From: Acaryochloris marina S15
Lineage (GTDB): Bacteria > Cyanobacteriota > Cyanobacteriia > Thermosynechococcales > Thermosynechococcaceae
Length of the DNA: 32,000 nucleotides
Direction: 5' to 3'
NCBI RefSeq assembly: GCF_018336915.1
Contig: NZ_CP064923.1
Coordinates: forward strand, 5,400,001-5,432,000
The translations under genes were made by a program, and so were the position numbers. Below are positions 6,034-22,394 of the stretch, one piece after another. The notes below the pieces were generated by a model. That model worked only from the letters and a program-made list of their open reading frames with translations. It was not told the DNA's origin and did not search any database. Within the stretch, counting starts at the first letter, position 1. Each line of letters begins with the position of its first letter.

Positions 6034-7373
6034 ATTCCACCAACGAAACGATCGGGATTCAAAATATTGTGAGGGTCAAATTGCTGCTTGAGCTGTTTCA
6101 TACTGGCGAGGGCGTTGCCAGGATATCCCCATACATCCAGGCTGCGCTTCAGTGCTGGCGGCGCGTCTAAAACCGTTAAAAATCCTTGGGCATTTTGACA
6201 GTGGGATCGCAACTCCCGGATCCATTCAACCCCAGGGGAGGGGTCCTTGCCTATGCCTTCCTGTTCTAATCGCAAAACTCCCGTGCCGCTCCCCGCATAA
6301 ATTCGTCCCCAACCGTCAATCTTCTGTTGTTGGCAATACTGATCAAACTGGGCCAGAAATTTGGAGGATTGAGCAGGCAGCACGCCAAATTTGCACACTA
6401 GGGCTGATGATTGAGGCGTTTGCCAAAACTGCTGGGTGAGCTGTTGCCAAAAGTCTATATCTGGGTCGGCGGAGAGGGTGATACTAGATAATCCTTGGGC
6501 CTGTTGCAGGATGCGATCGCACTGGGCTACCACACTCTCTTCTAAACTTTGGAAGCGCACCGCTAAGACCAGCTCACCGTCTACCGTCCCTGGAGGCAAG
6601 ACTGCAGGAGAGAGCAAATCCACCGCCATTGGGGTCAAGGTACTTCTGAGTAAGGTTCGGGTCAGCTCAGTAATTTGGGATTCAGTGCCACCAACCACCA
6701 CCGTTGCCGACGCTTCCGGCAGGGGATAGAGACGCAGGGTGACCTCAGAAATCACCCCCAAGGTGCCAAAGGCCCCAGTCATTAACTTCATTAAGTCGTA
6801 ACCGGCCACATTTTTGACGACTCGACCGCCTGCCTTGGCCGATTGTCCGTCCGCCCGCATAAAGGTAATGCCAATACACATATCCCTTAAACTGCCGTAG
6901 CGATGCCGTAAGCTGCCGCCATCACGGGTGGCGATCAGTCCTCCCAGGGTTGCCGTTTGAGGATAGGCCGGATCCAGGGCAACATATTGTCGGAACGTCG
7001 CTAATTCAGCCTGCAGGGTGGCCAAAGAGAGTCCGGCTTCCACGGTTACGGTTAAGTCACCCGTCGCATGGGCCACCACTCGATTGAGGCGCTGGGTACA
7101 GACCACCAAGTCAATCTGCTGGGTGAGGCCGCCCCAGTGGAGTTTGCTGGCTTGACCACATACCAATAGTCGCCAGCGCTGTTGATGGGCAACCGCCATC
7201 ACGGCAGCTAATTCGGGTTGGGTCCGAGGGTAAACAATATGGGTCGGCAGGGAAGCTTGATCAAAAATCTGTTCGGAGGGAGAGAGCAGGGCGGTCTCAG
7301 ATAACAGCAAGACCTGCTCAGGGCCAACAATCGGGATCAGTTGTTGGGAAAGCGCAGCAGTTGATAGAACCAC
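6030..7373 (-). CDS. glcE: Glycolate oxidase FAD-binding subunit (PCMH-type FAD-binding oxidoreductase)
   Basis: 447-aa ORF with FAD-binding-4-like region (VVCTQRLNRVVAHATGDLTVTVEAGLSLATLQAEL; GGRVVKNVAGYDLMKLMTGAFGTLGVISEVTLRLYPLP). Immediately upstream of and translationally coupled (ATGA overlap) to glcF. Confidence 0.8.
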   Translation of the reverse strand: MVLSTAALSQQLIPIVGPEQVLLLSETALLSPSEQIFDQASLPTHIVYPRTQPELAAVMAVAHQQRWRLLVCGQASKLHWGGLTQQIDLVVCTQRLNRVVAHATGDLTVTVEAGLSLATLQAELATFRQYVALDPAYPQTATLGGLIATRDGGSLRHRYGSLRDMCIGITFMRADGQSAKAGGRVVKNVAGYDLMKLMTGAFGTLGVISEVTLRLYPLPEASATVVVGGTESQITELTRTLLRSTLTPMAVDLLSPAVLPPGTVDGELVLAVRFQSLEESVVAQCDRILQQAQGLSSITLSADPDIDFWQQLTQQFWQTPQSSALVCKFGVLPAQSSKFLAQFDQYCQQQKIDGWGRIYAGSGTGVLRLEQEGIGKDPSPGVEWIRELRSHCQNAQGFLTVLDAPPALKRSLDVWGYPGNALASMKQLKQQFDPHNILNPDRFVGGI

Positions 7374-7595
7374 AATAAACGGCGTGATAAGTCAGCGGGA
7401 GTTGAGCAGTTTAATCAAACTGTTTATCCACCATAAACGGTATCCCAGACTGCAGACAAATCAATTAACCTGCCCAATCGGATCAGCGGCCAGACTTAGC
7501 ACCCAGAGATCGTCTAAGTCATCCTGTTTAGCCAGCCTTACCCACCACTAAAACGTCATTCCCCTAGACTTGAGTGGTTTTCGCATCCAGCCCCG

Positions 7596-7877
7596 TTATT
7601 CGTATTGAAAGTTGCCCACCAGGGGGAACTCATACTGAAGATCGCCACTTAACGTATATTCATAATCTGGGTTAAAGGCTTCATCATTCAGCAGGTAGTA
7701 ATGATAAAAGCCAGGGTGGGGGTAACTACTGTTGAAGAAACCCGCCGAAGGAATAAAGAAGGGAATCGGCGAGACTGAATTGGTAGGGAAACCAAAAACG
7801 ACCTGGGTTTGAGCAGCCGCCGCAGTGGGTAAGCACACAAGGGCTAGACTAGCCAGGGCAAGCATCGTGAATTTCAT
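7596..7877 (-). CDS. Small secreted aromatic-rich hypothetical protein
   Basis: 93-aa ORF with signal-peptide-like N-terminus MKFTMLALASLALVCLPTAAAAQ. No recognisable domain. Confidence 0.5.
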   Translation of the reverse strand: MKFTMLALASLALVCLPTAAAAQTQVVFGFPTNSVSPIPFFIPSAGFFNSSYPHPGFYHYYLLNDEAFNPDYEYTLSGDLQYEFPLVGNFQYE

Positions 7878-8157
7878 GACAGGTCCCTTCTCAGTAGGAA
7901 GTAACGATAAGCAATAAGGCCCAACACCTCAACCGAGATCATAAGGACTCATAAACCTTAAATTTTTTCTCTGACCAAAAAACTTAAGCATCTAGCCATT
8001 TCATTCATTAAATTAGATAAGAAATAGCACAGAACGCTTTAGCTTTGATCGTACCTAAAGCTTATCGTCAACTGAGTTAGCCATGTAATCTAGGCAACAA
8101 ATATCAGCATGGATGTAAAGAAAAGTAAATCTAAGGCAAGACATGTAAAGCGACTCT

Positions 8158-8182
8158 GCTCTACCTCTTGCAGAGATAGAGC
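8158..8182 (-). terminator. Stem-loop downstream of the 8217..8930 gene (possible terminator, no U-tract)
   Basis: gctctacctct-tgc-agagatagagc gives an 11-bp stem with one mismatch and a 3-nt loop. It lies ~35 nt past the stop of the minus-strand gene. No T-run follows on either strand. Confidence 0.3.
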
Positions 8183-8216
8183 CTACAAAGCTGATTTCAT
8201 CAAGACTTGAGCTACT

Positions 8217-8930
8217 TTAGGGATAGTTAAAGTCAGCATTCACATCAGGCTGAGCTAACGGATCCCCCGGCAGAACTTGAGACAAGGCCGCAACATCATC
8301 TTCTTCAGCAGGTAAGCACACCTTGGTCGCCCAAGTCCCTACATACTGAGTCACTCGCAATGTCCGGCCCGGCTCAATTTTCATCCGGTCGATTTTGGCT
8401 TTAGACAAGCTGGTGACCAATCGTTCACCTGTGGGGGACACCAGACCCAACTTATTCTCTTCCACCACAATCACCGTCCCCTCAAAGACCCGGCGCACGC
8501 GGGCCGAGTCTAACTTAACGATCTGGTCATTGCCATTGACATCAAACCCCACCAAGCTGCCACGGCGGAAGGTTTGAGTCGCACCGTTGGCCGCCACTTT
8601 ATAGGTTCGAGCCGTACCATCGATTAAGCGCACCGACAGCTGATCGCCTTTTAAGGAACGGACTAATCCATATTGACTCAAAATTTCGGTGGGTCTAACG
8701 GAAGGCGTCGTTAAGGCAGTTTGGGTGGTGTCGGGAGCAGCCTCGGGCGGATTGACCGGTATCGTGACTGGCTCAAACGGTCCCAAGACCTCGGCATCGC
8801 GAGAAAAATTGTTGGCAATGGACGCTGAGTCCTCTGTCACTAGATCCCTGGCTTGGGCATGGCTGGCAACGGTTGCACTGATCAGTGTGAGGCAAATGAT
8901 GGAAGATGAAGCGAGGGATTTTACCAGCAT
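8217..8930 (-). CDS. Secreted hypothetical protein
   Basis: 237-aa ORF. Signal-peptide-like N-terminus MLVKSLASSSIICLTLISATVASHAQA, then a Pro/Thr-rich linker and a beta-rich C-terminal region. No family recognised. Confidence 0.6.
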   Translation of the reverse strand: MLVKSLASSSIICLTLISATVASHAQARDLVTEDSASIANNFSRDAEVLGPFEPVTIPVNPPEAAPDTTQTALTTPSVRPTEILSQYGLVRSLKGDQLSVRLIDGTARTYKVAANGATQTFRRGSLVGFDVNGNDQIVKLDSARVRRVFEGTVIVVEENKLGLVSPTGERLVTSLSKAKIDRMKIEPGRTLRVTQYVGTWATKVCLPAEEDDVAALSQVLPGDPLAQPDVNADFNYP

Positions 8931-9304
8931 TTCTTTGCCGCCTTGACCAATTTAAAGGTTTACTTAAAAATTGCGATAAAACTGAATTTTGTGAAGGAGA
9001 AATTGTTAATAATTCCTCAATTTTTCGAACTTGAAGCAATTTTTTATATCAAAAGAATACCCTATTCAACAAAAGAACAGCAAGGGACTTATTCGGGCTG
9101 CAGACAGCAAAATTGGGGTTGGAATTCATTTTTTACAGGTTTATCCCGAAATTTCGGGGTTCCCTGGTTTTTGGAGTTTTTACAAACTGATCACAAAAGC
9201 TTAAAGAAATGGGATCGCATTTTATGGGACCTTAATTAGCAACACAGCAGTTCGAGATCTTCTCACCTCTGCTAGATTGCTCCAGACACGGGTAAACAAG
9301 GGCT

Positions 9305-11275
9305 ATGTCACAACCCACGATTGAATCCATCCTGCAAGAACAGCGCCTGTTTCAACCGCCTGCAGACTTGGCGGCCCAGGCCGAAATCAAAAGTGCTGAG
9401 GAATATGAGCAGCTTTATGCCAAGGCAGAAGCTGATCCTCAAGCATTTTGGGCTGAACTCGCAGAGAAGGAACTGGACTGGTTTGAAAAATGGGATACGG
9501 TGCTGGACTGGCAGCCCCCCTTTGCCAAATGGTTTGTCGGGGGCAAGCTCAATATCACCTATAACTGCCTGGATCGTCACCTCAAAACCTGGCGACGCAA
9601 CAAAGCCGCTCTAATTTGGGAAGGAGAGCCAGGGGATTCTCGCACCCTGACCTATGCCCAACTCCATCGGGAAGTCTGCCAAACCGCCAACGTTCTCAAG
9701 CAGCTGGGAGTGGGCAAGGGCGACCGGGTGGGTATTTATATGCCGATGGTACCGGAAGCTGCGATCGCAATGTTGGCTTGTGCCCGCATCGGTGCCCCCC
9801 ATACCGTTGTCTTTGGTGGGTTTAGTGCGGAAGCCCTCAAAGATCGCCTCAACGATGCCGAAGCCAAGCTAGTAATTACCGCCGATGGTGGCTTCCGCAA
9901 AGATAAAGCCGTCCCTTTAAAAACAGCCGTCGACAAAGCATTAGCCGACAATGGTGCTCCCAGTGTTAAAAACGTGTTGGTGGTGCAGCGCACCAAAGCA
10001 GATGTGACGATGGCATCCGGTCGCGATCACTGGTGGCATGAGTTAGTACCGACGGCCTCAGCAGACTGCGCACCCGAACCCATGGACAGCGAAGATATGC
10101 TGTTCATTCTCTATACCAGTGGTACGACTGGAAACCCTAAAGGGGTGGTGCACACCACTGGCGGCTACAATCTCTACACCCATATGACCTGCAAGTGGGC
10201 CTTTGACCTCAAGGATAACGATGTCTACTGGTGTACGGCGGACGTGGGCTGGATTACTGGCCATAGCTATATTGTCTATGGCCCCTTATCCAATGGTGCT
10301 ACCTCTCTGATGTATGAAGGGGCTCCTCGGGCTTCCAATCCAGGCTGTTTCTGGGATGTGGTGGAAAAATATGGGGTCAATATCTTTTATACCGCTCCCA
10401 CCGCCATCCGAGCCTTTATTAAATTGGGCGATCAACATCCCCAAGCCCGCGACTTATCTTCTCTGCGAATTTTAGGCACCGTCGGTGAACCCATTAACCC
10501 GGAAGCCTGGATCTGGTATCAGCAGGTCATCGGCGGCGGCAAATGCCCGATCATTGATACCTGGTGGCAAACAGAAACTGGTGGCTTTATGATTACGCCC
10601 CTGCCGGGTGCAACTGCAACCAAGCCGGGCTCTGCCACCCGTCCCTTCCCAGGGATTTTGGCGGATGTTGTGGATTTGGACGGCAATCCTGTTGCAGACA
10701 ATGAAGGGGGCTATTTAGTGGTGCGCCATCCCTGGCCCAGCATGATGCGCACGGTTTATGGGGATGACGATCGGTTCCGTCGCACCTACTGGGAACATAT
10801 CCCTCCCAAAGACGGCAAGTATGTTTACTTTGCTGGAGATGGCGTCCGCCGAGACGAAGATGGGTACTTCTGGATCATGGGCCGCGTCGATGACGTGATC
10901 AATGTGTCCGGTCATCGCCTGGGTACAATGGAAATTGAATCGGCTCTGGTATCCCATCCAGCCGTAGCAGAAGCCGCCGTTGTCGGTCGTCCTGATGACC
11001 TCAAAGGGGAAGATGTGTTTGCCTTTGTCACTTTAGAAAATACCCATCCCCCCAGTGACGATCTCAAAGTTGAACTCAAGAAGCATGTGGTCAATGAGAT
11101 TGGCGTAATTGCTCGTCCCGGCGAGATTCGCTTTGCTGATGCCTTACCCAAAACCCGCTCTGGCAAGATTATTCGGCGGTTTTTGCGGAACTTAGCTAGC
11201 GGTGAGGACATTGCTGGCGATGCGTCCACTATGGAAGACCAAAGTGTTCTAGACAAACTCCGGCAAGGATCCTAG
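9305..11275 (+). CDS. acs: Acetyl-CoA synthetase (AMP-forming)
   Basis: 656 aa. AMP-binding signature [11 protein letters not shown]. Also WWQTETGG, the C-terminal [11 protein letters not shown] motif, and a typical Acs N-terminus ([17 protein letters not shown]). Confidence 0.95.
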
Positions 11276-11309
11276 CGCCTGCAAGAGGAAAACCGTATAC
11301 GGTCTATTC

Positions 11310-11357
11310 GGTGTAGTTTTACCCCATCTCTGCGGGTAATCTACACCAGATTTTTTT
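11310..11357 (+). terminator. Rho-independent terminator of acs
   Basis: ggtgtag(tt)ttaccc-catctctgc-gggtaa(t)ctacacc gives 13 bp of stem in two segments. It is followed by aga and TTTTTTT (11351-11357), 35 nt after the acs stop. Confidence 0.75.
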
Positions 11358-11401
11358 GGGTGGGTCTGGGAGAATGAAATCACTGAAGTACAGGACCTTC
11401 A

Positions 11402-11686
11402 ATGAAACAACCCTCCTTGTTTAAGCTGTTTCAAGACGCCTTTCGCCAAGGCATTCGTCATCCAAAATATCGCTGGGCTCTGATCGCGGGCACCCTATTT
11501 TATCTGGTCAGCCCGTTAGATATTGCCCCTGATGTTTTACCTATCGTGGGTTGGATTGATGACGGTGTACTGGTAACCTTCCTGATTTCTGAAGTCTGTC
11601 AGCTCATGTTAGAGAACAAGAAAAACGGCACCTCAGAAGACACGTTTGAAGCCGCAATTGATATTGAAGCAAACCCCGTTGTTTAG
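11402..11686 (+). CDS. DUF1232 (YkvA-like) small membrane protein
   Basis: 94 aa. Motif YLVSPLDIAPDVLPIVGWIDDGVLV is typical of DUF1232. Confidence 0.75.
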   Translation: MKQPSLFKLFQDAFRQGIRHPKYRWALIAGTLFYLVSPLDIAPDVLPIVGWIDDGVLVTFLISEVCQLMLENKKNGTSEDTFEAAIDIEANPVV

Positions 11687-11727
11687 TCGCCTCACCCAAC
11701 AACTTGCAGCACTGGAGATTTTTACAG

Positions 11728-12273
11728 ATGGACAACACCACCCCCATGAACTCTACATTTGACCAAATTAAAACTGAAAGTGGGACTCGCAGCCAGCGGA
11801 TTGGCAAGATCCTCAAGGATGCCTTTACTCAAACATCAGCAGAATTGAAAGAAGGGTATACCATTGTTCGCCCCCTAGCTGCTGAAATGTCTGCCACGGT
11901 CGCTGCAGACTTAAAAGACAAGCGCCATCAAGCCTCTAGTAACTTCCAAGAAGCCTGGGGTAAAGAGACAGACTCAAAGTCAACCTGGGAACGTTTGCAA
12001 AGAGTCTTCCAGGTCATGGCCAATGCGATTCAAAAGACCTTCGCTCCTCCCCTGCAAAAACAGGCCACTCGCGTCGATACCAAATTCACTGACCAGTATG
12101 GTGGCTCCTACACATCCATAAAGCACGGACTCCAGTCTCTTAAAAACTGGTACGTCAATGCTACGGATGCTGCCACCCCTGCTGATTCATCCACCCAGCC
12201 CCTAACTGTGGTGACCCATGACAACGTCACGGTGGATGTGGTCGCCTCCCCCATCGAGGCTCCGGTTCAGTAA
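11728..12273 (+). CDS. Hypothetical protein
   Basis: ORF open from 11704 (TTG). The first ATG is at 11728 (MDNTTPMNSTF...). No recognisable domain. Same orientation as, and close to, the DUF1232 gene. Confidence 0.55.
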   Translation: MDNTTPMNSTFDQIKTESGTRSQRIGKILKDAFTQTSAELKEGYTIVRPLAAEMSATVAADLKDKRHQASSNFQEAWGKETDSKSTWERLQRVFQVMANAIQKTFAPPLQKQATRVDTKFTDQYGGSYTSIKHGLQSLKNWYVNATDAATPADSSTQPLTVVTHDNVTVDVVASPIEAPVQ

Positions 12274-12415
12274 ATCTGTGGGCATGGATTCAGCCCCTAA
12301 GTCGCTCACTACACTTCCCTCTTCAGATCTTGAAAGACCTGACTCTGCCGCTAGGATAGAGTTGAGACTCCCTTCAAGTCTGGAGGGATTTTCTTTGTTT
12401 GAGTGATCATAGATT

Positions 12416-12922
12416 ATGGCTTCCCTGATCCAATCCCGTTCTTTAGAAGAGTTGCTGGTTACGGCGATTGCGATGGTTTCCAACCGGCCTGTGGCCATCG
12501 CAACTCAATCCCACATAAACCAATTCGATAAAGCAGGCAAACCCTACATTGATCACCCCCTGCGAGTGATGGGAGCGGGCAATACCCTCCCCGAGAAAAT
12601 TGTGGGTGTCCTCCATGATGCCGTGGAAGACTCAGAGTTAACCCTGGTGGCGCTCACTGAGGCAGGATTTCCCGCAGAGATTGTGGCTGCCATTGATGCA
12701 ATTACCAAACGCCAGGATGAACCCTATGACACTTACCTAGGCAGAGTCATGGCGAACTCCATCGCACTACGGGTCAAAATTGCAGATATGACAGACAACA
12801 TGGATATCAGCCGCATTGCCCAGCCAACGGATCAAGACTGGGCCAGATTGAAAAAATATGAAACCATCCTGCCGCGACTACGGCTGCAGCAAGAGCAGGG
12901 ATTAAAACGGCGTAAAGATTAG
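12416..12922 (+). CDS. Small HD-domain protein, RelA/SpoT-type (p)ppGpp hydrolase-like (small alarmone hydrolase-like)
   Basis: 168 aa. IDHPLRV ... VLHDAVEDS ... AIDAITKR ... VKIADMTDNM matches the H..HD..ED..N layout of the RelA/SpoT hydrolase HD domain. No synthetase domain. Confidence 0.7.
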   Translation: MASLIQSRSLEELLVTAIAMVSNRPVAIATQSHINQFDKAGKPYIDHPLRVMGAGNTLPEKIVGVLHDAVEDSELTLVALTEAGFPAEIVAAIDAITKRQDEPYDTYLGRVMANSIALRVKIADMTDNMDISRIAQPTDQDWARLKKYETILPRLRLQQEQGLKRRKD

Positions 12923-12992
12923 CAAAGCAGGTTGCTTGCCTAGTCAATAGAACACAACAATAGAGTTGAACGCTGAATTAGGCGATGTTTGA

Positions 12993-13361
12993 GTGAAGTT
13001 ATTTTCTGTTTTGATTGCTTTTAGCCGAAAAGCTGGCTTATGGATGGGTCTAATCGGGGTGTGGTTAGGGATCAATCTCTCCCCTGCCTGGGCTACTCCG
13101 CCTGAGGCCTCGGATGGAGCGATGCTCTTTGAGAACTACTGTGCAGGCTGCCATCCCAAAGGCGGCAATATTATTCGTCGCGGTAAAACCTTAAAACTAA
13201 AATCTCTCAAACGAGATAGTTATGACACCCTGGAACCCCTCACTGGTATAGTCACCGAGGGCCAAAACAATATGCCCGGATTTGCAGATAAGCTCGATAA
13301 TGCTCAAGTTGAGACCGTGGCCCAGTTTGTTCTAGAACAGGCTAACCACAACTGGAAATAG
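12993..13361 (+). CDS. c-type cytochrome, cytochrome c6-like
   Basis: 122 aa. Signal-like N-terminus ending SPAWA. Haem-binding CAGCH. A downstream Met ligand context (QNNMPGF), as in cytochrome c6 paralogs. GTG start. Confidence 0.8.
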   Translation: MKLFSVLIAFSRKAGLWMGLIGVWLGINLSPAWATPPEASDGAMLFENYCAGCHPKGGNIIRRGKTLKLKSLKRDSYDTLEPLTGIVTEGQNNMPGFADKLDNAQVETVAQFVLEQANHNWK

Positions 13362-13379
13362 GACTTTAGGAGTAGGCCC

Positions 13380-13964
13380 TTGACACCTTTGAATATCAAA
13401 ATCGCCACTCCAGCAGAAGCAGAGGACTGTCTAACGGTTCTGACCTTAGCCTTCTGCAATGATCCAGCCATCCGGTGGATGTTTCCACAGCCCGCTCAAT
13501 ATGCCCAAGGTTTACCGCTATTTGCCCAAGCTTTTGGCGGTGCCGCGTTTCAGCAGGGGACTGCATTCTATACAGAAGGGTTTGGGGCGGTTGCCCTCTG
13601 GCTACCGCCGACTGCTCAGCCGGATGAAGCAGCTCTAATGACCTTGATTCAGCAAGGCGTTGAGGCCAGCCAACAACCCGCCCTCACCTCTATTTTGGAA
13701 CAGCTCGGTGGGCACCATCCCCAAGAACCCCATTGGCATTTAGCGATTATCGGTACCGATCCGATCTGTCAGGGGCAAGGATGTGGATCTGCATTACTCA
13801 CCCATACCCTTGCGATCTGCGATCAACGGCAAGAGCTGGTGTATTTAGAAGCGACGAACCCTCGTAATGTTGCCCTGTATAAAAAGCATGGCTTTGAAGT
13901 ATTGGGTACAGTTCAGGCAGGGAATTCACCAACCCTCTATCCCATGCTCAGACAGCCACAATAA
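13380..13964 (+). CDS. GNAT-family N-acetyltransferase
   Basis: 194 aa. Acetyl-CoA binding-type segment ICQGQGCGSALL followed by YLEATNPRNVALYKKHGFE. TTG start. Confidence 0.75.
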   Translation: MTPLNIKIATPAEAEDCLTVLTLAFCNDPAIRWMFPQPAQYAQGLPLFAQAFGGAAFQQGTAFYTEGFGAVALWLPPTAQPDEAALMTLIQQGVEASQQPALTSILEQLGGHHPQEPHWHLAIIGTDPICQGQGCGSALLTHTLAICDQRQELVYLEATNPRNVALYKKHGFEVLGTVQAGNSPTLYPMLRQPQ

Positions 13965-14003: not shown

Positions 14004-14726
14004 GTGCCTACCCTTGGTGTCAATATCGATCATGTGGCGACTATTCGCCAAGCGCGTCGTACTGTGGAACCAGATCCAGTGGCAGCAGCGGTATTAGCAG
14101 AATTAGCGGGTGCTGATGGCATTACCGTGCATCTGCGGGAAGATCGGCGGCATATTCAGGATCGGGATGTCGAGGTGTTGCGAAAAACCGTCCGCACCCA
14201 CTTGAATTTGGAAATGGCGGCGACGGAGGAGATGGTTGCCATAGCACTTCGTATCCAACCCGATTATGTCACCCTGGTGCCGGAAAAGCGGGAGGAAGTG
14301 ACGACAGAGGGAGGGCTAGACATTGTAGGACAGCAAGCCCATATGGCCGATGTGGTCAAGACCTTACAAGCTGCCAATATTCCCGTTAGTCTGTTTATTG
14401 ATGCCGACACCGCCCAAATTGAAGCATCGGCTCAAGTACAGACTAAGTTTATCGAACTGCATACGGGGACTTATGCGGAAGCGAAAGGTGAAGTCCAACA
14501 GGCCCAGGAGTTGGAAGTGTTGAAACAGGGTTGTGAACTCGCCCTTGCATTGGGACTCCGAGTCAATGCTGGTCATGGTTTGACCTATTGGAATACCTAT
14601 CCCGTGGCCTGTCTACCGGGGATGGAAGAGCTAAATATTGGCCATACGATTATGAGTCGGTCGGTGTTGGTGGGTTTGGAACGAGCGGTGCGAGAAATGA
14701 AAGAAGTCATCGCAGGTCGAGGCTAG
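14004..14726 (+). CDS. pdxJ: Pyridoxine 5'-phosphate synthase
   Basis: 240 aa. N-terminus [15 protein letters not shown], then HLREDRRHI, then VNAGHGL. These are canonical PdxJ motifs. GTG start. Confidence 0.95.
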
Positions 14727-15133
14727 GTTGACAGTGCCGTTACCTGCTGACATATCCAAGCACGCATAATTTAGGTCTAAATAGCAGATATCTTCACTGT
14801 TAGAGTTCTTCTCATTCTATCTGGGGGAAGATTCAGTGGGGCCTGTCAGGGATGAAACTTAAACAACAAGCCACAGTAAAGCTTCGGCAGGGTTTGCCTT
14901 TCGGATCGAAGACTTTATTGTCTTGGAATGATCAGCCTTGTCAATAAGATTGAGCAACCTGAAAAGAATTGGCCTATTCTTGGATTCCACTTGTGATAGA
15001 TAAATCATTACCCCCCGATATTTTTGCAACGCTAGAAAGCCCAGTTTATACAACCGCAATTTCTCCTAACGGGCAACAAGTCGTTGCAGGGTTAAAAGAT
15101 GGTTCTCTACATCTTTTCGATCTAGTGGAGGGC

Positions 15134-16746
15134 CAGCCCATCGGCCAACCCTTCGCGGGACATTCTGGCTATGTCTGGTCCGTCGCCTTCTCCCCTGATG
15201 GAAAAACCATCGTCAGTGGCAGTTATGACAACACCCTGCGCTTGTGGAATCTGGACGGACAGACCATCGGCCAACCCTTCTCGGGACATTCTGACACTGT
15301 CAGGTCCGTCGCCTTCTCCCCTGATGGAAAAACCATCGTCAGTGGCAGTGATGACAACACCCTGCGCTTGTGGAATCTGGACGGACAGACCATCGGCCAA
15401 CCCTTCGCGGGACATTCTGGCTCTGTCTGGTCCGTCGCCTTCTCCCCTGATGGAAAAACCATCGTCAGTGGCAGTTATGACAAAACCCTGCGCTTGTGGA
15501 ATCTGGACGGACAGACCATCGGCCAACCCTTCTCGGGACATTCTGACACTGTCAGGTCCGTCGCCTTCTCCCCTGATGGAAAAACCATCGTCAGTGGCAG
15601 TGATGACAACACCCTGCGCTTGTGGAATCTGGACGGACAGACCATCGGCCAACCCTTCGCGGGACATTCTGGCTCTGTCTGGTCCGTCGCCTTCTCCCCT
15701 GATGGAAAAACCATCGTCAGTGGCAGTTATGACAAAACCCTGCGCTTGTGGAATCTGGACGGACAGACCATCGGCCAACCCTTCTCGGGACATTCTGACA
15801 CTGTCAGGTCCGTCGCCTTCTCCCCTGATGGAAAAACCATCGTCAGTGGCAGTGATGACAACACCCTGCGCTTGTGGAATCTGGACGGACAGACCATCGG
15901 CCAACCCTTCGCGGGACATACTGGCTCTGTCAGGTCCGTCGCCTTCTCCCCTGATGGAAAAACCATCGTCAGTGGCAGTGATGACAAAACCCTGCGCTTG
16001 TGGAATCTGGACGGACAGACCATCGGCCAACCCTTCGCGGGACATTCTGGCTCTGTCTGGTCCGTCGCCTTCTCCCCTGATGGAAAAACCATCGTCAGTG
16101 GCAGTTATGACAAAACCCTGCGCTTGTGGAATCTGGACGGACAGACCATCGGCCAACCCTTCTCGGGACATTCTGACACTGTCAGGTCCGTCGCCTTCTC
16201 CCCTGATGGAAAAACCATCGTCAGTGGCAGTGATGACAACACCCTGCGCTTGTGGAATCTGGACGGACAGACCATCGGCCAACCCTTCGCGGGACATTCT
16301 GGCTCTGTCAGGTCCGTCGCCTTCTCCCCTGATGGAAAAACCATCGTCAGTGGCAGTGATGACAACACCCTGCGCTTGTGGAATCTGGACGGACAGACCA
16401 TCGGCCAACCCTTCGCGGGACATACTGGCTCTGTCAGGTCCGTCGCCTTCTCCCCTGATGGAAAAACCATCGTCAGTGGCAGTGATGACAACACCCTGCG
16501 CTTGTGGAATCTGGACGGACAGACCATCGGCCAACCCTTCGCGGGACATTCTGGCTCTGTCTGGTCCGTCGCCTTCTCCCCTGATGGAAAAACCATCGTC
16601 AGTGGCAGTTATGACAAAACCCTGCGCTTGTGGAATCTGGACGGACAGACCATCGGCCAACCCTTCTCGGGACATTCTGACACTGTCAGGTCCGTCGCCT
16701 TCTCCCCTGATGGAAAAACCATCGTCAGTGGCAGTGATGACAAAAC
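15134..16746 (+). repeat. Tandem array of ~12.8 near-identical 126-bp (42-codon) WD40 units with a 252-bp higher-order period
   Basis: Direct reading shows invariant blocks such as tccgtcgccttctcccctgatggaaaaaccatcgtcagtggcagt and accctgcgcttgtggaatctggacggacagaccatcggccaacccttc recurring every 126 nt. Differences are limited to 7 codons per unit. Confidence 0.95.
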
Positions 16747-17231
16747 AGTATGTTTGTGTAAACGCACCATTGAGAAAGACTTCAAACTCCTGTGGATGTG
16801 CCCTCCCATCATTGCCAAACCCATTAAAAATTTATCTGAGCTGATCGGCAATATCCTCATTTCTCAGGGAATCAAAAACGATCGAGCGTTTGGTCATGAT
16901 GCCTTAGATGTCGAGGATGAAATTAATGCTTTAACTGAAGTACTGCTACTCAGGAGTTTGACCCCTCCAGTTGCCGTCGGCCTATTAGGCAATTGGGGCA
17001 GTGGAAAATCGTTTGGCATGCATCTCATTCAATCCCAGATCAAGGCTCGACGACGCCAAGCACTGACATCAGAAGAAGCCTGGGGAAAGTGGAACCCCAG
17101 GCAAGAAGCACAGATTGAACGCATGTCACCATTTGTGGGTCATGTTTACCAGATTCAATTCAACGCCTGGACCTATGCCAAGTCCAATCTTTGGGCAAGT
17201 TTGATGCAGGAAATCTTTTATGAATTGAATC

Positions 17232-17240
17232 GACAAATTA
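17232..17240. repeat. Left copy of 9-bp target-site duplication GACAAATTA
   Basis: Identical 9-mer directly abuts both IS ends (17232-17240 and 18727-18735). Confidence 0.85.
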
Positions 17241-18726
17241 GGGCGTAAGCAAAGGATCGGGGATGCATGGCTCAAAGAAAAACGGGTCAAGGACAATAGA
17301 TCCTGTACCCGAACCAAAAAACTATCATGACCCTACCATCGCAATTGCTAACCGTGCTAGCCCATGACGAATTTCTAGAACAAACTGAAGCACTCAAAGT
17401 ATCAACCAGCCTGAGTCAGATGGTTTATATCGTTCTGCAAATGGGCTTGTTTCTAGCTCGCTGTCTTCTGGAGGATGAACTCTCAAGGCGCGCGAAAGCA
17501 GTATTTGTATGGCCTGTATGTACTACCTGCGGAACCCGCTTACATTCGAAGGGATGGGAATCTCGTCAGATGCAGACACTGGTAGGCACTATCTCTTGAA
17601 AGCGACGGGTGGGCCGTTGTCCCAAAGGATGTCCAGGCAGTCTGTTGACTCCCCTGGATCAAGCCATTGGGATTGCCCCCTATCAGCACAGCAGCGAAGA
17701 ACTGGTGCGTCTGGGCTGCTTGTTGAGTCTGTTCATGCCCTATGAACTGGCCAGTTGGATGCTGGGTCAGTGGAGTGGTCTATCCGTGAGTCCATCCAGT
17801 TTGTGGAACTGGGTGCAATCCGTGGGTAACAAAGCTCAGCAGGAATTAGAAGCTCAACTCAACGCTCAATCATCAGGGACTCAGGCCCCTTGTGAAGCGA
17901 TTTCAGAGATGTTATCTGCTCTACCTTTGGCCATTGCCGCCGATGGTGTGATGGTCCCCTTTCGCCCCACCCCGAACTCACCCAAGGGAAAAATCCAGTG
18001 GCGAGAAGTCAAAGTCGCCATCTTAGCTCGCCTGGGAACACGGGTTACCCGAGCTAAAAAGGAGGTCCCCCAATTACTGCGTCGAAGACTGGTGGCAGTA
18101 TTGGGCGATATCGACCAGTTCATCCCTTTACTTCAACTCGAAGCTCACAAACAAGACTTTGAATCTGCTCCAAAAGTCATCTGGCTCAGTGATGGGGGAC
18201 GAGGCTTCTGGCGAGTCTATCGCACCTTGTTCTCTCATTGTGCTGTGGCAGTCCTCGACTTTTTTCATTCAGCAGGCCATCTGGCACGAGCAACTAAAGC
18301 GATGTTTGGAGATGCCCGCTCTGCTCAAGCCCAAGCCTGGTTCCGGCACTGGCGACACCAATTGCGACACGGGCAACACCTACTTGTATTACGGTCCTTG
18401 ACGATATTGATTCACTCACAACTGTTAACGGGAAAGTCTTTTTCAACGTTGCTCCAGGTGCAGGCTTATTTCCAACGCCATCATAACCACATCCGTTATC
18501 GGCACTTTGAACAGCAACAGATTCCTCTCGGGTCAGGAATGGTTGAAAGTGCATGCAAGTGGTTGATTCAGCAGCGCTTTAAGGGAGTTGGCATGCGCTG
18601 GAGTGAGGATGGTTTCAACCATTTACTGATCTTGAGAATTGCCTGGGTCAATGAACGGTTTGACTCCTTATTCCCAGAGGTGACCATTCCGAAAACTAAG
18701 GCATCCCCGATCCGCTAAATACGCCC
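17241..18726 (+). mobile_element. Insertion sequence, 1486 bp, single DDE-type transposase (ISKra4-like; family assignment tentative)
   Basis: 26-bp imperfect terminal inverted repeats: left gggcgtaagcaaaggatcggggatgc (17241-17266), right gcatccccgatccgctaaatacgccc (18701-18726). 21/26 positions match by my alignment. Flanked by the 9-bp direct repeat GACAAATTA. Interrupts an otherwise continuous reading frame. Confidence 0.9.
17327..18718 (+). pseudogene. IS transposase reading frame interrupted by one in-frame TGA (17597-17599)
   Basis: ORFs 17327..17599 and 17609..18718 are in the same frame, separated only by TGA plus three sense codons (..TLVGTIS*KRRVGRCPKGC..). Cys-rich zinc-finger-like segment CTTCG...CPKGC. 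Candidate DDE residues in IAADGVMVPF, WLSDGGRGFW and GSGMVESACKW. Confidence 0.7.
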
Positions 18727-18735
18727 GACAAATTA
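18727..18735. repeat. Right copy of 9-bp target-site duplication GACAAATTA
   Basis: See left copy. It directly follows the right IR. Confidence 0.85.
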
Positions 18736-21716
18736 CCTTAGAACAAAAATTGGGCCGTTTTTTAAGCAATAAGGATGCCCCACTCACTGAAAACGCATCG
18801 CCAACCAGTCCTGCTCATCGGGGCCAGCATTACACTCCCTATAAATTTCTGAATTATTATATTCTCCGCCACTATCGGCTGATCCAATCCTTCTATCGAC
18901 CGATTAAAAACACAATCTATGCATTTTTTATAGCATTTCTTTCTTTCTTAGATTTAGCGATTGGGCAACTCATTATTCATCTAGGAGTGATATTTCTCAC
19001 TATTCTTTGGATCATCCTTTTTCTAACCACTCCACTCTTGCAGTGGCTCACAGAAAAAATTCGCTTCAAGTCTTCAGATATAGATTGGGTTGATAACCTT
19101 GGTGAGTTTATTGAGGCTTTACTCTTTATTTATATAGATTGGTTAAAAAGACAGCTTATAACATATTATTTTCCCCAGATAAATCACTTACCAAGTGCAA
19201 GCAAGTTAGACTACTTCTTGCAGTTTGTTGAGCGTAGTTTATTTTTCTTTTTGGAAGGTTTTCCAAAAAGAATACGGGATCGAATAACTTATTGGCAACG
19301 CCAGCAAGGGGCATTAGAGTCAACAGAAGCAGAAAGCCATTCCCCGCAAACACCACTTGGTATAGACGAGAACCTCCAATTCGGTGAAATTGCTCGTGTC
19401 AATCAAGCTTTACGTCAAGGCGGGCCATTATGGGAGGTCCTATATGAAATCAACGAGGCAGATGCCGATGTCCTCCTCGAACAACGGCTTAGCAAGGAAG
19501 ACAGAGCAAAGTGGAACAACTTAAAATCCAATCAAGAAATATCCAATGTCCTTTGGTCAACGCTAGATAAAATTCAACGACAGAAAAATCAGAATTTTCA
19601 AGCCTTAGAGCAAAAGCTTAAAGAAGCCGAGAAAACGTTAGAACGAAAGCAAAAAAGCAACAAAATTAGTATCAATCAGAAACTCAATCAACGAAAAATA
19701 AGAGCGCTCTGGACACCGTTTTTTAACGGTATAGCGCGGCTCAAATTTTCTAAGGAGGACATCGAAGCCTATTCTGCCGCTGGCACATCGTTTCAAAAGT
19801 TTCGTGACACCATTAAAAGCTGGCAAGGCTTACTTGCCTTATTTTGTATGGGGTTGTTGATTGCGCTCACCGCTAGTTCTGAAAGTCGAGAAGCAATTAC
19901 CCAACTGTTACAAACCATCCTGAATTCTCAAGCCCTTCGTAACCTCATACCTGAATGGATCAAGAACAGTCTCAATTCACTAGTCTCTTGGCTTCCTAAG
20001 GCAATCCAAGCATTTCCAACCTGGCTTCAGATTGGATCTGCGACGTTGATTAGCTTACTACCCGTCATAAAAGCCCTTACAACTTACATTGGCTCAGTCC
20101 AAAAAGAGCAAGCTCGCATTCAAGGCGAAAAAGAGACCTTAATCCAACAGTCCCAAGACAGAGTCACATCAGAAGCCCAAGAAGTCGCTCAGCTACGTTT
20201 AAGAGTCGAAGAAGAACGCCAACAATTGGGACCAAATGCCCAATATCCTTCTCTACTCGACTTCGTCAACGCTCGAATCTCAGGCGATGACTATGGTAAA
20301 CATCTGGGTCTCATGCAGCAAATCAAACAAGATCTTGCAGCCTTATCCTCACGTCTGACCCTGAATCAAAGCAATGAGCAAGATATTCAACAACTATTTC
20401 CCCGCGGTCCTGCCAGAGTATTTCTCTACATTGATGATCTCGATCGTTGTCCCCCCGACCGCGTCGTTGAAGTGCTCGAAGCAGTCCAGCTTCTCCTTAA
20501 TACCAAACTATTTGTCGTCATTTTAGCCATTGACGATCGCTACATTGCCCGCGCGTTAGAACAAGTTTATGCAGGCGTTCTCAAGCGCCGAGGCAAACCC
20601 TCTGGCATCGACTACTTAGAAAAAATCATCCAAATCCCCTATCGACTGCGTCCTATTTCACCCGATACCGTTGAAAGATACTTTCGTTCACAGCTCACCA
20701 TCAAAAAAGAAGATCAGTCATGTGATAAAGGCACAGCACAACAGACTATCTCACATCTCAGTACTAAGCCTTCAGGTCACTCTCATTCAGAATTAAATCA
20801 ACTTGAGAGTCAGTATGTTCAAGACACAGTCAACTCAGAGTCTGAAAAATTACAGCCCACAACAGATAAAGTAGATAATCCATCAAACCAAAATGGTGAA
20901 TCGATAACTCAGAACCTCACCTCCTCTACTAAATCCTCAGAGGAAAATTTACCCAGTCCTAAACCATCTGAGTCATATGCCAAAGCTGCTGTCAGTCCAA
21001 GCACAGAACAAGCAGAACGTCTAAAAGCTTCCGTGAATGAACCGGAGACCAATACTAGTTCTAACGAGAGCAATGCAGAGCCATTAAACAAACCTCCGAC
21101 TCCAGAAGAAGTCACCTATATCTCAACGATTGCAACCGTCGATGCATTTGATGAAGAGGAACTCAAGCTTTTAGTCGATTGCTGTAAATATGTGGATATA
21201 ACCCCTCGAACAGGCAAAAGGTTAATCAATATCTACAAAATCCTACAAATTATTTGGAAAAAGAGGCATAAGGAAAAAGATCACGATCTTCCCTCTGATC
21301 AAACAAAGCGAATAGTGATGTCATTTCTTGCATTATCAGGCAGATACCCTGACTTTATGCGCAATCTCTTTGACGAAATCGATATGCTACTGGAGAAAGA
21401 AACTTTTGCTTCAACCAATGGAGAGATACTCATAAATCCTTCGATTCATCTATCTCTCTCAGAAACACTTGAGACTCTAGCCCCCACAAGCGATTCAAAA
21501 AACTCCCAAGATTTTCACACCAAGAGAGAATGGGATCGTTTCACCTCAGACATTAAACGCATGGTGGCGGACTCTTACACTACAACCGCAGACCCTGTTC
21601 TCACCTTAGATCGCAGAACCTTTTCTTTAATGCTTTCATTCTGCTTTGTGGGAGATCTTGGCTATGACCCAGATGATCACCCAGTGAACGTTCCAACACT
21701 TCAAAATCCTGAATAA
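18736..21716 (+). pseudogene. 3' part of the IS-disrupted WD40-KAP NTPase gene (TM insert, coiled coils, Walker B, disordered insert, C-terminal helical region)
   Basis: In frame with the 5' part once 17241..18735 is removed. Hydrophobic segments IYAFFIAFLSFLDLAIGQLIIHLGVIFLTILWIILFLTTPLL, LLALFCMGLLIALTA and WLQIGSATLISLLPVIKAL. Walker B VFLYIDDLDRC (20418-20450). KAP-like C-terminal ITPRTGKRLINIYKIL. No ATG start of its own (the track uses TTG 18750). Confidence 0.85.
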
Positions 21717-21989
21717 TTCACATTCGTCTGCAAGACTGCTTGAGCAGAGATTACCATTGGCGACCTCAACATCTAACCACTTTGTAAGTAGAGTGCAGTC
21801 TGCATTACACCCAAACAGCAAAATATGATGATGCCATACGGAAAAAGCGAAGTTTGCCAACAATTTTGCTAACAGACTCATTCAACGGGACGGTGCAATA
21901 TCTACACTATCCATGCAATGGCGTTATGATCTTCTCAAGCAACCTGGACCTTTTATGGTGATCGCGTCTCAGCAAACAATCCATAGATT

Positions 21990-22394
21990 ATGCCCCATAT
22001 CCCCTCCTTAACCCAGGTGCAATTAGAAATTCTTCGCCTCGCGAAAGAGAATGATGGTGAAACGCTGCAACTATCCTTTGAATCCCCCGTCATGGGTCAG
22101 GGTGAACCCCCCAGCGATCATCCTCCTTTAATGCAAGAGATGATTGACCTAGGCTTACTCGAAGTACAATCCAGTCGGGTCTATTGCGATACTTCTCGAT
22201 TTCAGAGAGATTGCTGGTTTGAATACTGCGCCAATTTAGAACTGCCCTCCATCTACGCCTGGGAATTATGGCGCCAAGAATTTATTGAGAAGCAGGAAGG
22301 ATCAACCACACTCATCTCGCCTGGAGAAGAATTTGAAGATTTCAGCTATGTGTGGGTACAAGAAATGATATTTCGGGCTGTTCAACCCAGCTAA
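21990..22394 (+). CDS. Hypothetical protein (orphan)
   Basis: 134-aa ORF with ATG start, acidic. No recognisable domain. The N-terminal LTQVQLEILRLAKENDG is only vaguely HTH-like. Confidence 0.45.
   Translation: MPHIPSLTQVQLEILRLAKENDGETLQLSFESPVMGQGEPPSDHPPLMQEMIDLGLLEVQSSRVYCDTSRFQRDCWFEYCANLELPSIYAWELWRQEFIEKQEGSTTLISPGEEFEDFSYVWVQEMIFRAVQPS

Follow-up and report, generated by a model that had tools for sequence, protein, structure and literature searches.

In a window of 32,000 nt from the chromosome of Acaryochloris marina S15 (NZ_CP064923.1, positions 5,400,001 to 5,432,000; coordinates below are those of this whole stretch), positions 14993-21716 hold one chromosomal gene that combines WD40 repeats with a KAP-type NTPase and is interrupted by an insertion sequence (IS) of the ISKra4 family. 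The IS entered a conserved helix after the second core strand of the NTPase, duplicating 9 bp and parting Walker A from Walker B. The open reading frame (ORF) list contained an ORF of 759 aa at 14969..17248 (+) and another of 988 aa at 18750..21716 (+). The first terminates at TAA 17246-17248, 8 nt into the IS, and its product ends with ..NRQIRA. In-silico deletion of 17241..18735 (1495 nt) joined 2272 and 2981 nt into an open frame of 5253 nt, that is 1750 codons with one terminal stop and no internal stop, in which ..FYELNRQIT is followed directly by LEQKLGRFLSNK.. at the junction. A preliminary description of this DNA had proposed that one gene of 1750 codons was split by an IS and that excision would restore its frame. 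We reproduced both ORFs, the stop 8 nt inside the IS and the restored frame of 5253 nt, while the figure of 1750 codons holds for the maximal ORF, which opens at TTG 14969, and not for the length of the protein. The gene has no ATG start, and GTG 14993 rather than TTG 14969 is its likely start, because the ortholog in the related locus L086 opens with VIDQSLPPDIF at the equivalent GTG and that in L013 has an ATG one codon downstream. The two fragments are accordingly delimited at 14993..17240 (+) and, including the stop codon, at 18736..21716 (+), and the product has about 1742 aa (up to 1750). The protein opens with 14 WD40 blades and the Walker A half of the KAP NTPase, after which come a hydrophobic hairpin, an extended helical region, another two hydrophobic helices and one more helical stretch; the Walker B half with the KAP helical region is next, and a disordered linker and a conserved C-terminal domain close the chain. 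The structural account, the insertion and the functional proposal made below form an explanation that, taken as a whole, we hold with good confidence.

The inserted element is 1486 bp long (17241..18726, +), as delimited by its repeats, its transposase profile and a second copy elsewhere. The preliminary description had listed imperfect inverted repeats of 26 bp and a 9-bp direct repeat, and the repeat finder returned them again: a left arm at 17241..17266 and a right arm at 18701..18726, each of 26 nt and 81% complementary. The direct repeat was reported as CGACAAATTA at 17231-17240 and 18726-18735, and since its first base, C, doubles as the final base of the right arm, the target duplication is the 9-bp GACAAATTA, with a left copy at 17232..17240 and a right copy at 18727..18735, in agreement with the empty site of a relative. 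The transposase frame (17327..18718, +, 463 codons) matched the NCBIfam ISKra4 model NF033572 with 266.1 bits (cut-off 205) and contains an in-frame TGA at 17597-17599. A second copy of the IS, 99.7% identical, was found on plasmid pMB01 of Acaryochloris sp. 'Moss Beach'. Because this copy shares the same ends and has a 9-bp duplication of its own, ATTGCGATC, the boundaries 17241-18726 and the length of the duplication are independently confirmed. The pMB01 copy (L081, NZ_CP071718.1 83943-85428) differs from the window copy by +1 and -1 indels about 345 nt apart, and the deposited pMB01 'ISKra4 family transposase' coding sequence therefore opens in a shifted frame; from its sequence this copy looks defective.

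Homologs support the reconstruction. A genome scan gave 80 loci, each from a different species, almost all of which encode the KAP region in a single ORF that spans the junction. The preliminary description had suggested aligning uninterrupted orthologs across ..NRQIT/LEQKL.., and about 75 homologs read straight through as a single ORF; besides L013, L001 alone among the listed loci is split, at a place other than the junction. The homologs carry FYELNRQI(T/S)LEQ(K/Q)LG here, with N163-R164-Q165-I166 invariant in a 12-sequence alignment, and the junction lies in the family's most conserved motif. The site is empty in two syntenic Acaryochloris relatives, L013 and L086, where ..FYELNRQITLEQKLG.. 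is read without interruption. L013 is an Acaryochloris sp. metagenome-assembled genome with 82% aa identity, and pdxJ and the equivalent intergenic region lie upstream of its gene. Its empty site reads ..AATCGACAAATTA followed directly by CCTTAGAACAAAAA.., contains a single GACAAATTA and aligns gap-free with the excised window, 109 of 120 nt being identical. In L086 the order is cytochrome c, GNAT, pdxJ, the WD40-KAP gene and recN, without the IS. The ortholog came from the genome scan; exact-sequence look-ups of P0001 and P0002 gave no contigs.

The NTPase half was identified by its profile. The reconstructed protein, which had been predicted to match KAP NTPase profiles, did so with 123.6 bits on Pfam KAP_NTPase (PF07693; cut-off 20, E 1.2e-35) in two stretches, the better of which spans profile positions 72-290 of 293. 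Walker A (GNWGSGKS, 16988..17011, +) and FNAWTY of the second strand of the P-loop core (17159..17176, +) are on the 5' piece and Walker B (VFLYIDDLDRC, 20418..20450, +) is on the 3' piece, at the positions already assigned to them; the insertion point is in the helix after FNAWTY, and both Walker motifs are invariant or nearly so in 58 homologs. In the AlphaFold model of the KAP part of the 82%-identical ortholog (predicted local distance difference test score, pLDDT, 73.5), strands 59-64 and 116-123 of the core come from the 5' side of the junction and strands 710-717, 743-749 and 784-787 from the 3' side. As the core sheet of the model draws strands from both sides, the two halves are one P-loop domain, which agrees with the Pfam match and with the original proposal. 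The junction falls after model residue 149, within helix 132-160 (pLDDT about 90). Membrane-embedded segments had also been suggested, and the stretch from Walker A to Walker B is predicted to contain four hydrophobic helices, all helical in the model. Two strong ones form the first hairpin of predicted transmembrane helices (18915..19040, +; aa 818-838 and 839-859; mean Kyte-Doolittle values 2.1 and 2.2), the third is moderate (19821..19880, +; aa 1120-1139; 1.6) and the fourth is weaker (20022..20090, +; aa 1187-1209; 1.3). Behind Walker B, a poorly conserved low-complexity linker rich in S, P, E, Q, N, T and K (20703..21110, +; pLDDT <50 over residues 819-955 of P0001) leads to a conserved C-terminal helical region from ..DITPRTGKRLINIYK.. 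to ..SFCFVGDLGYDPDD.. (21111..21713, +), seen in both the alignment and the model, the start of which matches the C-terminal end of the KAP profile.

The N-terminal part (14993..16759, +) consists of 14 WD40 units of 42-43 codons, 13 of which are near identical. Tandem Repeats Finder gave a period of 126 nt with 12.8 copies and 95% matches at 15126-16743, and Pfam WD40 and propeller matches were strong over this part. Against the PDB, the best structural match was 2YMU from Nostoc punctiforme (sequence E 3e-237, fold E 1.6e-75), with 56% identity across 14 blades; the AlphaFold model had a pLDDT of 91.5 with a dip near residue 300, and half of it fitted the 7-bladed WRAP-T propeller with a template modelling score of 0.98. 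Based on these two fits, the WD40 part is predicted to form two 7-bladed propellers, and the earlier counting of 14 blades in two propellers is in line with the spacing of the units. The mean pairwise identity of the 13 similar blades is 81% (0.81), which places them among highly repetitive WD40 proteins (≥0.7). The 11 internal blades show no synonymous difference at all; every difference is nonsynonymous and falls in 7 of 42 codons (12, 15, 16, 17, 19, 35 and 37). The array at 15126-16743 alternates between two blade types, A-S-G-S-W-Y-K and S-S-D-T-R-D-N, and includes a few recombinant blades. Within 13 orthologs of other species, the units vary most at positions 35, 19, 17, 16 and 37. Positions 17, 19 and 35 correspond to the 'hotspot' positions of the WD40 top face as reported by Wu et al. 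2012, and the near-identical blades vary only at predicted top-face contact residues. All five positions agree with the top-face hotspots noted in PMC5587647, in which Hu et al. 2017 describe diversity at hotspot sites in highly repetitive WD40 proteins.

The family to which the gene belongs is large, with 13,598, 5,413 and 1,932 clusters at E≤1e-3, 1e-10 and 1e-30, respectively. The 80 loci are mainly cyanobacterial, many of them from filamentous species, and the others are mostly from Chloroflexota, Myxococcota, Gemmatimonadota and Planctomycetota. Relatives that share the KAP part at E<1e-100 carry other N-terminal modules (a trypsin-like peptidase with VMAP-M1, TIR, a PNP/UDP phosphorylase, or a caspase with nSTAND1), and further KAP relatives have helical-repeat arrays of >1000 aa at this position. 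The WD40 repeats stand at the N-terminus of this protein, as they do in all of the approximately 25 WD40-KAP loci. The WD40+KAP combination already appears in JGI and NCBI annotation, and no experimental work on any WD40-KAP protein was found in the literature.

We tentatively propose, at somewhat less than an even chance, that the intact protein was a membrane-anchored sensor and switch of the conflict or immunity type. The propellers would use their variable top faces to bind a protein that is foreign or signals danger; ligand binding would lead to nucleotide-dependent oligomerisation of the KAP domain on the cytoplasmic face of the membrane; and the output would be a perturbation of the membrane, as reported for PifA. 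Membrane perturbation is suggested as the output because the WD40 variants carry no enzymatic effector domain. A conflict role is supported by same-clade relatives with TIR, caspase, trypsin or PNP where WD40 stands here, by near-identical blades that vary only at predicted top-face positions, by a taxonomic spread of the family that matches known conflict systems (PMC7159879), by the published role of KAP as a substitute for STAND in such systems (PMC8195603), and by the independent lesions in L086. A bolder version, which we regard as more doubtful, is that WD40-KAP proteins are a distinct NLR-like class of membrane receptors, mainly of filamentous cyanobacteria, whose recently amplified blades would be kept uniform by conversion and diversified only at the top face, whose hairpins would kill or arrest the cell, and whose genes would be costly and repeatedly lost, here through an IS. 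A separate possibility is that the lineage of the IS limits its transposase by programmed read-through of the UGA. If the immune proposal is true, these proteins (1,932 clusters at E≤1e-30) would serve cyanobacteria and other multicellular bacteria as a membrane-based counterpart of NLR and Avs sensors. As it stands, the main value of the result is an annotation correction, in that two fragments are one IS-disrupted gene.

To read the protein as an immune sensor is reasonable but unproven, and the absence of a defence context weakens that reading. Several results weigh against it. The window is a syntenic housekeeping region, with acs, cytochrome c, GNAT and pdxJ upstream and recN (564 bits on TIGR00634), coaE and a P-type ATPase downstream. 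PADLOC gave no credible match among the neighbours in the window, only matches to RecN that apparently reflect generic ATPase similarity. No neighbouring gene family is conserved across the 80 loci, and no partner gene was found there. The 126 neighbours in 21 WD40-KAP loci gave, as raw counts, only a handful of matches to mobile or defence models: TnsB in two members, TnsC in two, one reverse transcriptase, MazF-type toxins in three and a few others. The collection of phage genomes contained no homolog, and plasmids contained only 7 weak ones. The defence and mobile contexts anticipated in the preliminary description were thus not seen in these searches. The PADLOC and NCBIfam similarities to QatA, PifA and PDC-S20 are partial, cover the Walker B region only and are far below the family thresholds. 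Sequence comparison of the KAP part with the PDB gave no match, and Foldseek on its model gave nothing significant, with Cdc6 (E 0.13) and RdrA (E 0.29) as the best hits. The nonsynonymous-only pattern of the blades rests on few changes, since the two main blade types differ at 6 codons out of 7 variable codons in total. The lesions in L013 and L086 are possibly assembly errors, because these short-read assemblies also collapsed the repeat array. Many of the same observations would suit a different role, in which the intact protein was a membrane scaffold or signalling NTPase like Kidins220/ARMS, the WD40 part recruited cellular partners and the IS removed a dispensable accessory function. The chromosomal, syntenic, housekeeping position of the locus in three genomes of the Acaryochloris lineage, the lack of a defence-island signal here and at 21 other loci, long-term purifying selection, an order of repeats and then KAP as in Kidins220 (PMC13001434) and WD40 variants without an enzymatic effector domain all point that way. 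We nevertheless consider such a scaffold rather unlikely, as sister proteins of the same clade have death or effector domains at the equivalent position, variation confined to the top face of the repeats is typical of diversifying recognition surfaces, and the gene was lost repeatedly.

As for the split itself, the coincidental in-frame joining of naturally separate WD40 and KAP genes is refuted. Its one support is that the 3' part has been deposited as a protein of its own, since the NCBI annotation covers only the last 821 codons of the 3' fragment as a 'P-loop NTPase fold protein' (100% identical to the deposited 821-aa 'P-loop NTPase fold protein [Acaryochloris marina]'). Against this, the split lies between Walker A and Walker B of one P-loop domain, about 75 homologs are single ORFs, two syntenic relatives have empty sites, and the inverted repeats and target duplication are those of a known IS with a second copy elsewhere. 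We infer, in agreement with the preliminary description, that the gene is inactive in this strain, because a single chain with both halves of the NTPase can no longer arise: translation of the 5' part stops 3 codons inside the IS, and a proper start is missing from the 3' part. A reversible switch, in which precise excision of the IS would restore the gene, is very improbable. Removal of the IS and one repeat copy does restore the frame exactly, and the transposase may still work because its in-frame UGA is a conserved feature rather than fresh damage; yet every insertion with a target duplication can be reversed exactly on paper, precise excision is rare for DDE-type IS elements, and the data hold no sign of switching. 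The insertion is recent, and the gene was constrained for most of its history, since the two halves are free of other lesions over 5253 nt, the duplication is perfect, and comparison with L013 indicates purifying selection. The ratio of nonsynonymous to synonymous substitution rates (dN/dS) is 0.24 overall at dS 0.38, with 0.04 upstream of the junction (the Walker A half), 0.21 downstream without the linker and 0.61 in the linker. The constraint over most of the divergence and the lack of further lesions in the window also argue against a gene that was already dispensable and was hit under relaxed selection, as a neutral accident rather than by selection against its cost, which we consider a rather unlikely history. 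What speaks for it is the condition of the relatives. The L086 ortholog (6961-10712) has a stop at a conserved Trp (..SLEA, stop, GKWKP..) as well as a frameshift around the second membrane helix, the L013 ortholog (9650-13501) has a 4-nt insertion (a TCAG duplication) in the WD40 array, and no ortholog from other Acaryochloris such as MBIC11017 was among the source-named matches. The arrays of L013 and L086 have only 2-3 blades and were probably collapsed by short-read assembly, and the possible assembly errors mentioned above apply to this argument as well. All three genomes of the lineage (the window, L013 and L086) look damaged, each differently, and the WD40-KAP gene appears to have been lost repeatedly in Acaryochloris, as costly immune genes often are.

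The in-frame TGA of the transposase (17597-17599 in the frame 17327-18718) stands at a Trp codon conserved in the family. A partial copy of the IS on plasmid pREB4 of MBIC11017, 87% identical, has TGA at the equivalent codon, and so have three further elements, whose C-terminal transposase ORFs (P0200, P0149 and P0134) share 65-75% protein identity with the query. By sequence comparison, the equivalent TGA is at 1557-1559 in L082, 589-591 in L083, 532-534 in L084 and 336-338 in L085. All 5 elements have a 90-codon ORF followed by an in-frame TGA AAG CG, with the protein conserved on either side. Among gene calls of at least 410 aa (n=25), Trp occupied the TGA position in 17 of the 17 in which the motif could be located. 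Gene calls of <410 aa make up 95 of the 120 closest homolog clusters, and many of them begin shortly after the TGA position. A fresh nonsense mutation in a dead IS was rejected as the origin of the TGA, given the equivalent codon in four diverged elements. The consensus fold around the UGA was a weak 6-bp hairpin with one compensatory pair, and no structure is claimed. The two halves of an apparent zinc-binding motif, CxxC and CxxxC, lie on either side of the stop. Since the stop splits this motif while the protein stays conserved on both sides, read-through, probably as Trp, would be the simplest route to a working transposase, and the conserved UGA may be a programmed read-through that limits transposase production. 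A -1 frameshift has been reported instead for the related ISMich2 group (PMC3942029), and no report of UGA read-through was found in the literature on ISKra4-family transposases. If true, it could be a new case of recoding that controls transposition.

Some further features of the locus and of its relatives were recorded. Two long ORFs in other frames overlap the WD40 array, at 15122..16675 (-, 517 aa) and 15171..16844 (+, 557 aa); they were rejected as genes and are most likely by-products of the near-identical repeats. A promoter and terminator scan of 14700-22000 gave the same counts as shuffled sequence, and Rfam and tRNA scans of the window gave no match. The largest cluster of neighbours, from 23 loci, was considered as a partner gene and discarded, as it consists of assorted histidine kinases at varying distance and on varying strands. 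L002 (1441-4378) and one other WD40-KAP locus have genes of a type V-K CRISPR-associated transposon a few kb away, with TnsB at E 1e-122 in L002 and a best TnsB match of 4e-214 in the other; TnsC occurs in two members. On plasmid pCC7120alpha of Nostoc sp. PCC 7120 (L087, 124768-135368), a 6894-nt coding sequence for a 2297-aa KAP-family protein, 45% identical over the KAP part, adjoins an opposite-strand gene for an NB-ARC domain protein.

Comparison with known systems shows that the architecture and the idea of KAP in the place of STAND are already known; the gene is a member of the KAP family with an ordinary IS disruption. The KAP family, reportedly defined by Aravind et al. in 2004, is sporadically distributed, its members tend to be found disrupted, and membrane helices lie between its Walker motifs. 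The protein described here shares with the family (PF07693) the profile match, a Walker A of the form GxxGSGKS, a Walker B of the form hhhhDDLDR and the hydrophobic helices between them, and its subfamily differs by long helical insertions that put about 640 residues between Walker A and Walker B, and by a disordered linker that leads to a conserved C-terminal domain of ~200 aa. The propellers resemble cyanobacterial WRAP and other highly repetitive propellers (2YMU) in having two 7-bladed propellers, 14 blades and a W/R-type variable position before SVAFSPDG, but are here fused to a KAP NTPase. The IS agrees with the ISKra4 family (p-MULT 4 Mutator-like transposases; PMC3942029) in its transposase above the cut-off, its terminal inverted repeats and its 9-bp target duplication, and is set apart by the conserved in-frame UGA that stands at a Trp codon of its transposase.

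KAP ATPases have been reported to displace STAND NTPases in conflict systems (PMC8195603) and are among the targets of diversity-generating retroelements (PMC10907252); a similar taxonomic spread has been reported for NTP-dependent conflict systems (PMC7159879), and according to a 2026 preprint KAPs frequently have repeats and accessory domains to which sensing and executing roles are ascribed (PMC13001434). The preliminary description had ascribed to the gene the logic of NLR/STAND-type sensors. With the STAND and NLR proteins that carry WD40 (Apaf-1, HET-E/NWD, Avs) it does share a repeat sensor coupled to an NTPase switch, and its highly similar blades vary at the top face as in highly repetitive WD40 proteins (PMC5587647). 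Its NTPase, however, belongs to another clade and its repeats are N-terminal rather than C-terminal, which likewise counts against an immune role; membrane helices lie inside the NTPase, and a separate effector domain is absent. No NACHT, NB-ARC or related STAND model matched, Pfam giving KAP_NTPase and a sub-threshold AAA_22 only, and the STAND order of effector, NTPase and C-terminal repeats was not found, nSTAND1 occurring only as a separate domain in some relatives. The kinship with PifA that had been pointed out is partly upheld. PifA, which is encoded on the F plasmid and excludes phage T7 by abortive infection, is likewise a KAP-family NTPase, but the PADLOC match is partial (E 1.6e-10, 38 bits, residues 1221-1412 only), and PifA is without WD40, is said to lack membrane helices and is plasmid-borne. 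As cited in PMC13001434, PifA acts at the membrane and causes depolarisation and leakage. QatA of the Qat anti-phage system is also a KAP-type ATPase similar over the Walker B region, with 69.5 bits against a cut-off of 600 and no QatB, QatC or QatD genes nearby. Tmn (YobI-family; PMC13001434) is a defence P-loop NTPase with helices within or next to the domain that senses a phage protein at the membrane; it belongs to another family, has no accessory repeats and forms a Mg2+-exporting decamer, for which nothing comparable has been shown in KAP. In overall plan, the animal protein Kidins220/ARMS is alike, with N-terminal protein-binding repeats and then a KAP domain with four membrane helices (PMC13001434), whereas its repeats are ankyrin and it is a eukaryotic signalling scaffold with SAM and PDZ-binding parts.

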